Below are positions 10,751-57,462 of a stretch of DNA of 64,000 nucleotides, piece by piece. This stretch comes from Eledone cirrhosa (lineage: Eukaryota), in NCBI GenBank assembly GCA_964016885.1, contig OZ024742.1, positions 322,648,001 to 322,712,000 on the forward strand, given 5' to 3'. The first letter of the stretch is position 1. Every line of letters begins with the position of its first letter. Below the pieces are notes generated by a model. The model did no database searches. It saw only the letters and a list, made by a program, of their open reading frames with translations, and had not been told where the DNA came from. The translations under genes and the position numbers were made by a program.

Positions 10751-10821
10751 TATTTTATTATGCGCATTTCAAAAACAAATATCATCATGGGATGATATTT
10801 GCGTTCTCATCAGATAAAATA
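10751..10821 (-). ncRNA. Minimal type I hammerhead ribozyme, apparently intact
   Basis: Minus strand: TATTTTAT-CTGATGA-GAACGCAAATATCATC(CCAT)GATGATATTTGTTTTT-GAAA-TGCGCA-TA-ATAAAATA; 8 bp stem I, 11 bp perfect core of stem II, palindromic stem III, AUA triplet. Confidence 0.85.
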
Positions 10822-10941
10822 GGGAGACATGATATGAAACTTAAAAAACACTTGCGAGCAGTGAAGTGTTAAATAAACATATGTTGATTTAACACTTCAC
10901 TGTTCGCAAGTGTTTTTTAAGCTTCATATCATGTCTCCCTA
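10820..10941. repeat. Palindrome with 61 bp arms (about 3 mismatches) abutting the hammerhead
   Basis: tagggagacatgatatg...cat|atg...catatcatgtctcccta. Confidence 0.95.
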
Positions 10942-13199
10942 AAAAAAAATGTACATTATTCGAATCCTGTCACTGGGTTGTACTGGACTGTTTCCATAAC
11001 TGATATCAATCAAAATAAGGGAATCTAAGCCTTTTATTACCATGTTTCTAATGAGAAACACTGCCTATGATCTCCAATTAACTTTGAAAGTAATCCAGAA
11101 ATTGGAGGGATTTACTAAAATAACTAACATTTTCATGGTTTATCTAATATTTGAAATATAACATAACAAATGTTCTTATGTTCTTATTGTAGAATTATGA
11201 TGGAAGATTCTTTTATTTTTATATATATATATATATATATATATATATATATATATATATATATATATATACACACACACACGCACACACACACACACAC
11301 ACACACACACACACACACACACACACACACACACTTACTTGCTTTCACTCCAATTTATTATAAATTAAAAAAAAAAAAAAAAAAAAATTTTTATTTAAAA
11401 AAAATTTATAAATTTCCAGTTGGTTGGTTCCACAACCGGAAGGTTGTTCAGTAGAACCAAGGGTAGTTTCGGGCAGTTTGGTATCAAAAGGCTTAAAGAA
11501 ACCTCATTGAATTCAAAATTCAGTGTCTTATTGTTTTTGATTCAATTCTCACTGACGTCAATTGTTGTCTTTTCTCCCTCTCACAGCTAGGATAATACAA
11601 ATGGCAGTAATACACTAGAGGCCAAGTTCAATCAAGATACACTCCTCACCTCAAAAGTGGATTTTATATAAAATCCTTGTTTGACACAGAAGTCTTGCAT
11701 GTGCCAGATTTTCTAATTAGCCATCACTTAGCAACTGTTTAGAATAATAAACATTTTTGCAGAGATAAGAGAAAAACCAGCCAACTTTTGCAATGATGCA
11801 GTTTCAGCTGTGTGGAGAATTTTAATGAAGTCTCAGAGGTTGTTAGGTCTAGACAGACTGAAGAGAGTAGATAGATATAGGTGCAGGCATGGCTGTGGGA
11901 TTGAGGAATTTGGTAGATGGAAATTGCAGAAGCCCGTCATTTGTGTGTGTGTGTGTGTGTCTGTCAGTGTCTCTATTGTGCCTGTGTTTATGCCCCATAA
12001 CGGAGGAGTTTTCAACAAAAAAGAGATTGATGAAATAATTACCAGACTTGAAAAAAAAGTACTAGGGTTGATTTAATTGACTAAATCAAGGTGGTGCCCC
12101 AGCATGGCAGCAGTCTAATGATTGAAACTAGTAAAAGAAAATAAGAATAGAAAATTTGTTTAGCATAATAGATAGTTTTTAGTAGAGATAAGAAAAAAGC
12201 CAGGATGCAATTGCAGCTGTGTAGAAAATGTAAGATTTTAATGAAGTCTCAAAGGTTGTTCAGGCAAGATAGACTGGAAATAGAAGATAAACATCTATGT
12301 ATATCAGAATACAGTAATAATCATCATCATCATAAAGGCATGTGGCTTTGTAGCTAAGGTAGTATACTCATGATCATAAGACTATGGGTTCAATTCCTAG
12401 AAAAGGCACTGTTTTAGCAAGACACTTCATTTCTCATTTTATTTCATAAGACTGAGGTTCTTATCTTTAAACACCTGAAAAACCTCCTATGAGATGCAAC
12501 TTTCTAAGAGACCAGCTAAACCTGTATAAATGTCAGCTGTAGATTTCAATTTTTTTTTTTTTTTCTCTCTAATTTTTATCATCATCTTCATCATTTTTAT
12601 GTCCATTTTTCCATACCATCTTATGTCAAACAATGCTTTTTGCAGCAGTATTCTACATACTGGTGGACGCCTTTCCTGGGACCAACCCATGTCTTATTTC
12701 CAGTATGACATATACCATATCCCATTGACATCTGTGCATGTCAGAATGACCTCATTCTCTTCTTTTTAAGTAATGACTATGGAATTCCTTGGGCCAAAAT
12801 ATCAAAACAAATATGGTAAACATGTAGAGTTATGTTCTTAGCTGTTTATTTTTTAGTGTATGGTTATAAGTTCCTGAATCATCATCATTTTAAGTTCATT
12901 TCTCTGTTTATGGAAATATTAGCAATATTCCGTGTTTCTAACTGTACAGTTTAGTGTTCCCCACTCTACTCTGTCTAGTTATTGTATTTCACTCACCCAG
13001 CTTTTACCACTATCTCTGTTTTTGTCCCTCCCCTCCTATTTTTGCACCTCTGCCCACCCAATCTTTTCTCTCCTTCTCTACCCACAAAATTTGTGTCACT
13101 TACCTCTCCATACCTACAGTTATGTAAATCCCCTCCTAAATTCATGGTATATCTCTTTCTCTTGCATAATGTGTTTGTTGTCGTCTTTCTATTTTTCAG

Positions 13200-13314
13200 T
13201 GTTAAAAAATGGTGACTGGTTTCCTGTTAAGTGGATTGACGTAACAGTGGGAGATCTGGTGAAGATTACCAGTAGCAAGTTCTTTCCTGCTGATTTGCTG
13301 CTCCTGTCTTCCAG
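13200..13314 (+). CDS. ATP8A1: ATP8A-like exon (VLKNGDWFPVKWIDVTVGDLVKITSSKFFPADLLLLSS)
   Basis: ttttcag acceptor, AG|gtaagt donor; A-domain peptide. Confidence 0.93.
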
Positions 13315-55830: not shown

Positions 55831-55855
55831 ATATATATATATGTATGTATATATA

Positions 55856-56584
55856 AAATTCAAAGGGATATATGTATATAATGTCATAGTCACAGATACA
55901 TATGAGTTTGGCTACCTTTCACGGTGTGGCTCAATGAAGAATTAATTAAGCAAATAATCATTAATCAGAGCTATATATAAAATTGCAAGTTTGAAGAATT
56001 ATTAGATAAAATATATACAGTATTTCCTGTCCCTAGTCCATATAAATCAACCACATAAATAATCATTTAAACGAGGCTATAAGTTTAAAATGTAACTATG
56101 AAGAAATAATAGACAAATGATACAGACTATCTTCTTCGAGGGATAGCCAGATAAAATTTACCTAGTCATTCCTTTTAGCCCGTAGAAATTGACTAGACAA
56201 ATAATCAACTACACGGAGTTAGGTATAAAATAGAAGTTTGAAGAAAAAATGCATATAAACTTTACCAAAATTCCCCTAGTCTCGACTACCGGTGGTTTCG
56301 TTCCTTTTCTGTAGATATATTCGATCTTGGATCTATCCAGGAGGCTTGGAACTCAACAAGAGACGCCTCAAGTCTGGACTAAAGTTTCTACCGTGATCCC
56401 CGCCAGAAATGAGTTCAAAAATGGCTAAGAACTATCACGTGGTTAGTGGTCAAGGCAGAAAATTGTGATTGGTTGCCAGTCGGCGAGAAGGCTGGTTGCT
56501 AGAAAGCGCAGCCAGATACTGCCTAAAGTTTTACTCAACTTTATGGGAGTATATATTAAATTCAAAGGGATATATGTATATAAT
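55856..56584 (-). mobile_element. ~700 bp hammerhead-bearing unit bounded by a 27 bp direct repeat (PLE pLTR or retrozyme-like)
   Basis: aaattcaaagggatatatgtatataat at both ends; hammerhead motif inside; sister copy at 23628. Confidence 0.65.
56279..56364 (-). ncRNA. Type I hammerhead motif with two core substitutions
   Basis: Minus strand: GTCTC-TTGTTGA-GTTCC...GGAAC-GAAAC-CACCGGTA-GTC-GAGAC; stems I to III pair, GUC triplet, core CUGAUGA reads UUGUUGA. Confidence 0.7.
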
Positions 56585-56587
56585 TAG

Positions 56588-57462
56588 ACATGTTACATTA
56601 AAAACAAAGCTGTGTTCAAGGTATAAGGATATTTCATATTTTCGAGACACCTACACAGCATCATCTTTATATCACATATATATATATATATATATATATA
56701 TATATATATATATATATATATATATATATGTATGTGTGTGTGTGTGTGTGTGTGTGTGTGTGTATACATACATAAGAGAGAGAGAAATGCAAACAAGAAT
56801 GGTTGGTTTAGGAAGCACTGGAAAATTTGAGATTTTAAAATATAGCCCCCACAATGCAGGTAACTATAATAATAGTTGGTAATTATAAACAATAGTTGCA
56901 TAATCAAGTAGTACCTCTGGAGACAGAAAAAAGTGGACAGAGATGCTGGCATTTCTGTCCACTGTTTTTTGTCTCCAGAGGTACTTTACCTGATTTATTC
57001 AACTATTGTTTATAATCATCAACTATTATTATAGTTTCTGTATTGTGGCAACTATATTTTTAAATATATATACATGTTCTCTTTAAGCTGTGCAATTACA
57101 CAGTCACTGTATTGGTACTATACACATCAAAACATTGCTCTCAGTAGTTGGGAGAAATTTGAGGGTATGGTGTGTGTGTGTATGTGTGTATACATATATA
57201 TATATATAATATATATATATATGTGTGTGTGTGCATGTATTTATATGTATATATGATATATATAGGTATTAATGACTGTCTTCAACTTCTTTTTTAAGGA
57301 TTTTTCATATTTCCTTATTTCTTTCTTTGGAACAATAGCATTCCAAAATCCATAAGTCTTTTGAGGCTTTCATACCATATTCTAAAGATGATGCTGTGTA
57401 GGTCTCGAAAATATGAAATATCCTTATACCTTGAACACAGCTTTGTTTTTAATGTAACATGT
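56588..57462. repeat. Inverted repeat (~80 bp arms, 56588-56669 and 57383-57462)
   Basis: acatgttacattaaaaacaaagctgtgttcaagg... and its reverse complement; visible as the same peptide in opposite-strand ORFs. Confidence 0.92.
56832..57065. repeat. Diverged palindrome (~115 bp arms) nested inside the previous inverted repeat
   Basis: agtacctctggagaca..agtggacagagatgc / gcatttctgtccact..tgtctccagaggtact. Confidence 0.92.

Follow-up and report, generated by a model that had tools for sequence, protein, structure and literature searches.

Palindromic hairpins in a 64-kb stretch of the Eledone cirrhosa genome as probable insertion products of Penelope-like elements

The stretch of DNA analysed here is a 64-kb window of the 3.0-Gb genome of the octopus Eledone cirrhosa (assembly GCA_964016885.1, contig OZ024742.1), with a GC content of about 35%. 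It carries two exons of a host P4-type phospholipid-transporting ATPase gene and a series of long inverted repeats. An original prediction made from the sequence had counted about nine of these repeats and attributed them to hammerhead-bearing Penelope-like elements (PLEs) that fold back on their own cDNA and integrate at TA-rich tracts. All nine were recovered. Seven belong to similarly built repeat families, termed A, B, C, E, F, G and I, and are very probably PLE insertion products. The remaining two (at 39051 and 56588) we read as local inverted copies of non-repeated host DNA, which does not fit the original prediction. The features of the window, with strand where one is assigned, are these:

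10707 to 10941: family A two-armed copy; tail-less arm complete, second arm broken off at 10941
10751 to 10821, minus strand: type I hammerhead motif, complete, its helix III short and palindromic; within the A arm, antisense to the host gene
13196 to 13315, plus strand: exon of the host P4-type phospholipid-transporting ATPase
23205 to 23512, minus strand: family B two-armed copy; tail 23205 to 23265 (internal deletion), arms 23266 to 23512
23549 to 24113, minus strand: family C two-armed copy; tail 23549 to 23677, tailed arm 23678 to 23966, tail-less arm 23967 to 24113
34999 to 35254: old inverted repeat J
39051 to 39308: repeat D; arms 39051 to 39086 and 39270 to 39308
39119 to 39250, minus strand: lone tail-less arm of family K that has inserted into the (TA)n at the centre of D
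39312 to 40886, minus strand: 5′-truncated Hydra-clade PLE remnant; endonuclease C-terminus (40611 to 40886), 3′ untranslated region (UTR), 3′ end in (TA)n
42122 to 42283, plus strand: exon of the host P4-type phospholipid-transporting ATPase
52881 to 53069, plus strand: short PLE reverse transcriptase (RT) remnant
54823 to 55012, plus strand: family E two-armed copy; arms 54823 to 54937, tail 54938 to 55012
55187 to 55623, minus strand: family F two-armed copy; tail 55187 to 55229, tail-less arm 55543 to 55623
55638 to 55830, minus strand: family G two-armed copy; tail 55638 to 55713, arms 55714 to 55830
55856 to 56591, minus strand: single-armed copy of C-related subfamily C2, a partial tandem
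56588 to 57462: repeat H; 82-nt inverted copy (56588 to 56669) of host DNA at 57383 to 57462
56801 to 57065, minus strand: family I two-armed copy, old family; tail about 56801 to 56831, arms 56832 to 57065

The hairpins between the two ATPase exons are firmly placed within the gene's introns, and an intronic placement is likely for those that lie outside the two exons. Identity between arms ranges widely: 95% for the repeat at 10820-10941, 77% at 23266-23512, 97% at 23678-23823/23967-24113, 96% at 39051-39106/39253-39308, 83% at 54823-54937, 90% at 55230-55285/55565-55623 (where a short interspersed nuclear element, SINE, splits the left arm), 91% at 55714-55830, 85% at 56832-57065 and 98% at 56588-56669/57383-57462. 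A tenth, old repeat (J) has arms of 73% identity. None was found in any of five block-shuffled windows, and the two hairpins of 117-122 nt that were folded gave about -90 kcal/mol, with z-scores of -18 and -21.

Such repeats are not peculiar to this locus. Sixty evenly spaced 10-kb stretches of the genome yielded 107 inverted repeats in 600 kb, 70 of them in a first sample of 400 kb and 37 in a second of 200 kb; the count includes satellites and chance SINE pairs. With the identical script this corresponds to 11-12 per 64 kb against 10 in the window, whose density is thus ordinary. Removal of seven satellite-type repeats (L289, L297; L numbers denote loci fetched from the genome) from the 70 left 63. 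The adjacency to (TA)n that had been pointed out holds in general: (TA)n lies within 25 nt of an end in 8 of the 10 window repeats found by script, in 49 of 70 repeats of the 400-kb sample (control 27%) and in 20 of 37 of the 200-kb sample (control 22%). A loose hammerhead motif occurs within 150 nt of 22 of the 70 repeats of the larger sample (control 11%).

The families share one anatomy. Read in element sense, the order is (TA)n, inverted arm, centre, direct arm, tail and (TA)n; the tail measures 30-130 nt, and the other arm stops at a fixed internal point, so that one arm is tailed and the other tail-less. The products are commonly palindromes of 120-500 nt that lack an open reading frame (ORF). 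Searches of the genome in which the best 40 matches were scored gave first-look candidates that are to be taken as lower bounds: at least 410 for A (at least 1084 with a tail query), 3785 for C, 3164 for G, 992 for I, 723 for E, 702 for B and 1117 for F. The 19 G tails present in the 600 kb sampled extrapolate to approximately 10^5 per genome.

Queries consisting of the tail alone do not favour palindromes, and they returned a second arm in 27 of 30 family A loci (24 by script and three more from longer stretches; duplicate loci L003, L028 and L013 were excluded) and in 27 of 30 family G loci (L164, mis-scored, was dropped, and L168 and L171 were not called). The tail-less arm of A ends at -83 from the tail end in 19 of 24 copies, and that of G within 2 nt of -76 in 26 of 27. 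When A was searched with a tail-free query, 21 of 27 copies had exactly one tail, none had two, and in six one arm was broken early. The one-sided tail is also seen by inspection in B, C, E, K and I. Genome-wide, 125 two-tailed (tail/tail) G copies matched an exact pattern; tail/tail-less G copies numbered three in 600 kb, or about 15,000 by extrapolation from that small count, and two-tailed copies thus make up roughly 1%. TA follows the tail of A in 24 of 24 copies and lies at the tail-less end in 20 of 24; in G the figures are 25 of 27 at each end. The association with (TA)n is weak in the old family I, and a target-site duplication is unreadable within (TA)n.

The centre of the palindrome differs from copy to copy, with 20 junction types in 24 A copies and 25 in 27 G copies. 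(Fixed, inherited centres, which had been considered, proved an artefact of querying with the whole hairpin; tail-only queries gave varied centres.) Private variants common to both arms of one copy occur at 0.114 per 100 nt, compared with 0.005 between copies (51 A copies), an approximately 20-fold difference. Because the arms share private variants while the centres differ, the palindrome was made anew from one template in each copy. This bears out the view that the inversion lies at the 5′ end of the element and arises at each insertion. No A-to-G excess of the kind left by an edited template was found.

Judged by its sequence, family A is the 3′ end of a Hydra-clade PLE, a clade that includes the octopus family Hydra-1_Obim (Craig et al. 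2021, PMC8557442). At L261, L262 and L264 it is continuous upstream with a 3′ UTR and, beyond that, an ORF encoding RT and a C-terminal endonuclease. By eye, DKT, CxCx5C and CxxC motifs can be recognized in the L261 and L264 ORFs, and the Hydra-clade motifs described in section 11 of PMC8557442 (RWK-type, DKT, CxCx5C, CxxC and CxH) in the ORF pieces of L241 and L248. L241 also has 481-bp direct pseudo-long terminal repeats (pLTRs) and a type I hammerhead of the A/K design. The element at L241:2089-6618 is nearly full-length and of Hydra type; its pLTRs are 98% identical, its ORF is frameshifted, and the sequence after the 5′ pLTR opens with the tail hairpin described below. In the ORFs of L261, L241 and L248 the RT thumb is separated from the endonuclease by long inserts rich in Asn, Thr or Pro; similar, Asn-rich inserts are described for rotifer Penelope in the parts of PMC3846280 drawn on here.

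The RT and endonuclease remnants that had been recognized in the window match PLE ORF pieces of this genome (tblastn E values of 7e-8 for 52881-53069 and 6e-26 for 40611-40886). Pfam gave nothing on either remnant or on four ORF pieces, a protein search with the endonuclease remnant gave no match, and the RT piece retrieved a single chance match from the PDB. The nearest database relative, P0001, showed a weak GIY-YIG match (E 0.043) below the cut-off. The idea that family C ends in a GIY-YIG reading frame was not borne out.

Hammerhead-bearing parents were found for A, E, F and G, in agreement with the proposal that several such PLE families are involved. Our hammerhead calls are based on motif and fold, and self-cleavage is a prediction; a scan of the window with Rfam returned no hammerhead and only sub-threshold miRNA-type matches to hairpins and TA runs. 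The G parent has a complete hammerhead with a U3-A8 core and a long helix II loop, which folds as a three-way junction no better than shuffled sequences do (z 0.9). Because the G hairpins are cut within this loop, they retain only the 3′ half of the ribozyme. The F parent has a U3-A8 hammerhead and longer E relatives have a canonical core (core motifs in E and K were recognized by eye); hairpins of G, E and F usually contain no more than half of the ribozyme. No complete hammerhead was found in B, C or I (0 of 15, 0 of 30 and 0 of 20 loci), and family I showed neither hammerhead nor tail hairpin.

Four of the window repeats had been tied to hammerheads. At 10820 the tie is sound, the complete type I motif lying on the minus strand within the element's own arm. 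The arms at 55714 are indeed built from a U3-A8 hammerhead, of which only the 3′ half is present. The repeat at 39051 does enclose a motif, which belongs to the separate, inserted family K: its core lies at 39138-39174, with helix I damaged by a deletion, and elsewhere (L266) this family makes tail/tail-less palindromes of its own. The tie at 23678 was not borne out in the 30 C loci just mentioned. A further hammerhead-like motif with a long helix II loop lies in the PLE remnant at about 39365-39441. Every element-associated motif in the window that is complete or nearly so runs antisense to the host gene. Hammerhead cleavage as the event that sets the RNA 5′ end or fold point was considered and rejected: cleavage would fall at -134 (A) and -96 (G), and the 5′ ends cluster away from these sites, at -257/-176 (A) and -130 to -143 (G). 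The window copies of E and F do start near the cleavage site, but they were themselves the queries.

The tails of otherwise unrelated families open with a common hairpin, consisting of RCTC, a variable stem-loop, a 2-nt bulge and GAGY. A descriptor for it matched between -8 and +20 nt from one end in 15 of the 63 repeats of the first sample and, in a blind second sample, in 5 of 37 repeats (random expectation 0.4%). All five have TA at the other end; in that sample the descriptor matched neither at both ends of a repeat nor on the opposite strand, and nine further matches had no called repeat beside them. Among 23 ends picked without requiring pairing, 16 have an inner stem of at least 3 bp, compared with 5% on shuffling; pairing is seen in 8 of 15 distinct inner sequences, and some of the others are mis-registered picks. 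Of the window copies, those of C, C2 and G retain an intact hairpin; in B and E it has decayed. The hairpin is a putative binding site for the element's protein. Two further matches in the window lacking a called inverted repeat, at 61739 and 711 (both minus strand), are probably single-armed or decayed copies.

The copies in the window conform to this anatomy. The tail-less arm of A (10707-10880) has its element sense on the minus strand and terminates in (TA)n, as does that of C; in B and G the tail-less end is flush with (TA)n. The conserved bulged hairpin opens the tail of C (at 23676) and starts at 55708 in G. The C unit is about 600 nt long and also occurs as tandems. A 27-nt repeat at 55856/56558, considered as a target duplication of the C2 copy, was rejected as family sequence. 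The tailed arm of F is interrupted by a SINE at 55286-55439; this very abundant SINE is found at one AT-rich point of F in many copies (L131-L145), at a frequency biased by the presence of the junction in the query. Family I would be of PLE origin on the strength of its architecture. No relative of J was seen among the loci compared, no genome-wide search having been made for it.

To explain these products we propose, as probable though well short of settled, that a single RNA is reverse transcribed from two start sites, with the two DNA ends of a break in (TA)n serving as primers, and that the products are then joined. The first cDNA would start at a far 3′ site and so carry the tail; the second would start just 5′ of the conserved bulged RNA hairpin and be tail-less. 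How far each proceeds towards the 5′ end of the RNA would vary, and end joining would then link the free cDNA ends head to head, frequently at short palindromes or hammerhead helices. Families without an ORF would be mobilised in trans.

Three lines of evidence favour two-end priming over single-primer schemes. First, either arm can be the longer. Of 27 A copies, 13 have a tail-less arm that extends further 5′ and four a tailed arm that does so, and in ten the arms are equal (two-sided p 0.049); in G the corresponding numbers are 7, 9 and 11 (n = 27). The difference reaches the kilobase scale at L261, where the tail-less arm is 2.46 kb long and includes ORF sequence and the tailed arm is 181 nt, and at L262 (about 2.9 kb against 0.9 kb); at L264 it runs in the reverse direction. 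Second, arms from two named subfamilies are joined in 4 of 41 scored tail/tail G copies and in 0 of 45 tail/tail-less copies (p 0.048). For this comparison the first 50 of the 125 two-tailed places were fetched, two of which did not re-match, and 7 of 48 tail/tail and 8 of 53 tail/tail-less copies were unscorable. Third, biochemical work on Poseidon PAc of the green anole (Frangieh et al. 2024, PMC11167929) describes, in the parts drawn on here, AT-rich target DNA cut and extended on both strands in vitro, two adjacent internal RNA start sites that bound the tail, and a stem-loop at the start; the protein is a predicted dimer and hammerhead cleavage is dispensable. PAc belongs to another clade, and its two start sites are not linked there to two inverted arms.

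Several observations weigh against this proposal. G shows no arm bias (7 versus 9), and A and G pooled give p 0.30. Many centres coincide with short palindromes or natural hairpins (helix II in 5 of 24 A copies), as would also be expected if one cDNA snaps back. Perfect palindromes suffer one-sided centre deletions after insertion, which could lengthen the tail-less arm relative to the other. In 37 of the 41 scored tail/tail copies the arms come from one subfamily, several of these copies carry private changes common to their two tails, and at the innermost marker the arms of the two clearest chimeras are identical; a looser but noisy measure of the subfamily comparison gave 15 of 46 against 6 of 52. 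An ORF link was seen for A but not for B, C, E, F, G, I or K in the stretches fetched, these families being assigned by architecture, hammerhead or tail hairpin. One of 15 B copies has two tails. The tail-hairpin descriptor was written after the tails of the first sample had been seen, and only the 200-kb sample is blind. We found no reason for the clustering of G 5′ ends at -130 to -143; use of hairpin copies themselves as sources could account for clustering near -135. Finally, for PAc in vitro no difference between the strands in start site was reported, which alone gives no one-tail rule (PMC11167929).

In two two-tailed G copies, L353 and L381, the outer subfamily markers and the tails differ and the marker nearest the centre agrees, giving mosaic arms.

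The most serious alternative, which we regard as a minority possibility, is close to the original prediction: one tail-started cDNA folds back, copies itself as far as the tail boundary and is joined, the boundary being set by endonuclease cutting or TA microhomology. It accounts readily for arms that share a template, for centres on natural hairpins and short palindromes, and for the matching arms of most tail/tail copies. The tail boundary of A, C, E and G carries an internal TA, and PMC8557442, in the sections drawn on here, ascribes tails to endonuclease resolution. A single snap-back gives a tail-less arm no longer than the tailed one, and longer tail-less arms then require later centre deletions. 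As the whole story it thus sits poorly with the copies whose tail-less arm is the longer one (13 of 27 in A, 7 of 27 in G): symmetric deletion cannot yield 13 against 4, L261 would demand a one-sided loss of 2.3 kb, and there is no route to arms from two subfamilies.

An improbable variant has the 3′ end of an antisense RNA fold back and prime the second arm, as suggested for rotifer PLEs, with one tail removed on integration. It has been put forward for head-to-head PLE palindromes (PMC3846280, as far as the parts drawn on here go), and it would favour a longer tail-less arm, as in A, if the RNA-derived arm sheds its tail. The asymmetry expected is one-directional, however, and both directions are seen in A and G, at the kilobase scale in A.

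That the hairpins are TA-targeting DNA transposons of the miniature inverted-repeat transposable element (MITE) or foldback type, their arms being terminal inverted repeats from a palindromic master, is highly improbable. The TA flanks and palindromic shape are shared with such elements, and family I, without hammerhead or tail hairpin, could be one. However, the 30-130 nt tail extends beyond the repeat at a single end, centres vary copy by copy where a fixed terminal-repeat interior would be expected, the arms of a copy share private variants, and A continues into a PLE ORF. This reading is largely refuted for A, G, C, E and B, as the original prediction had anticipated. Fold-back artefacts of assembly or sequencing are scarcely credible: D and H are single-locus cases known from this assembly, but arms differ by 2-27%, a fixed arm end recurs on many chromosomes, and raw Illumina reads of another sample span a G palindrome centre at a depth of 172, which supports the family as a whole. 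Among the sequencing runs compared, none gave a record across any of the window's own hairpins, H included, a result that counts neither for nor against them.

The two repeats outside the families are D and H. We take D to be a 38-nt stretch of host DNA copied in inverted orientation around (TA)n, immediately next to the PLE remnant's 3′ end; its arms had no match among the other loci compared, no genome-wide search having been made for them. In H, the copied host DNA lies 720 nt away and is joined to the 5′ end of C2, and its arms matched only themselves in a search of the genome. Both look like templated repair or template jumps at a cut site, and both are known from this assembly alone. The orientation of the H fusion is that expected from a cDNA jump onto host pre-mRNA or onto a nearby plus DNA strand.

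Inverted 5′ copies, tails, hammerheads and insertion at (TA)n have already been described for PLEs, and the proposal of a new system is not supported; what we see is mostly the familiar result of PLE insertion, in an extreme form. The PLE literature, in the portions drawn on here, reports tails at either end or on one inverted repeat, and junction palindromes (PMC8557442, PMC3846280). The commonest product here is an ORF-less palindrome, at about 10^5 copies for G alone, which differs from the Hydra-clade PLEs of PMC8557442; the sections of that paper used here do not describe the one-tail rule, the arm asymmetry or the tail hairpin. Adineta vaga Penelope (Arkhipova et al. 2013, PMC3846280, likewise in part) is similar in its head-to-head inverted pLTRs, junction palindromes, tail on one inverted repeat and mobilisation in trans. 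It differs in having few copies, and the self-priming on an antisense template invoked for it gives no two-way asymmetry.

Minimal PLE hammerheads and retrozymes also offer parallels, within the parts consulted of Cervera and de la Pena 2014 (PMC4209133) and bioRxiv 10.64898/2026.07.22.740005: type I motifs with a palindromic helix III and a U3-A8 core, opposite-strand motif pairs 100-700 bp apart, and non-autonomous PLE derivatives. Retrozymes are head-to-tail tandems, whereas the hairpins here are head-to-head; the tandem-forming family C showed no complete hammerhead. MITEs and the TA-targeting Mutator-like MuTAnT elements (PMC4486113) share the palindromic shape and the TA-microsatellite target, but have fixed two-sided terminal repeats and an inherited centre, and are not known to show a one-sided tail, hammerhead or RT link.

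A literature search found no octopus PLE hairpins, no miniature palindromic derivatives, no tail hairpin and no two-end or twin priming for PLEs, though older reviews and supplements may hold them. We did not find in print the approximately 10^5 miniature copies, about 99% of them one-tailed, the often longer tail-less arm or the conserved tail hairpin. In twin priming of L1 elements, two target ends prime on one RNA and an inversion results. There each cDNA takes its own part of the RNA; in the present copies one stretch is copied into both arms, which would need strand displacement.

Other repeats share the window. A nearly intact long interspersed nuclear element (LINE), which we take from its motifs to be of L1/Tx1 type, lies at 6805-10244 (plus strand, GC 58%), with APE endonuclease and RT frames of 777 and 415 amino acids, a frameshift, and an ORF1-like stretch before it. 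A LINE RT fragment in two frames, presumably RTE-type by its motifs, lies at 32796-33931 (minus strand). Tandem units of 48 nt attached to a very abundant short repeat family occur at 13443-13774, 25117-25402, 27764-27884, 43527-43745 and 59052-59339.

Section 15 of PMC8557442 calls the origin of one-sided tails and inverted repeats in PLEs an open problem. With tens of thousands of young insertions, this genome offers arm lengths, junctions and subfamily marks that discriminate between models, and one RNA hairpin is singled out as a target for mutation. Elements of this kind are easily filed as MITEs, SINEs or unknown repeats. The original prediction also held that the hairpins supply stems of intronic double-stranded RNA (dsRNA), and folding predicts that they would: one local inverted repeat occurs per 6 kb, at least a fifth of them with the strict tail hairpin, which makes them a likely large source of such RNA. 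Tentatively, and with the balance somewhat against us, we suggest that a dimer bound at the bulged RNA hairpin starts a cDNA on each side from two target ends, so that nearly every insertion would become a one-tailed palindrome. In this genome the process may then have given rise to miniature ORF-less hairpin families (about 10^5 copies of G) that make up a major unrecognised class of long intronic dsRNA stems in a lineage of heavy A-to-I editing.

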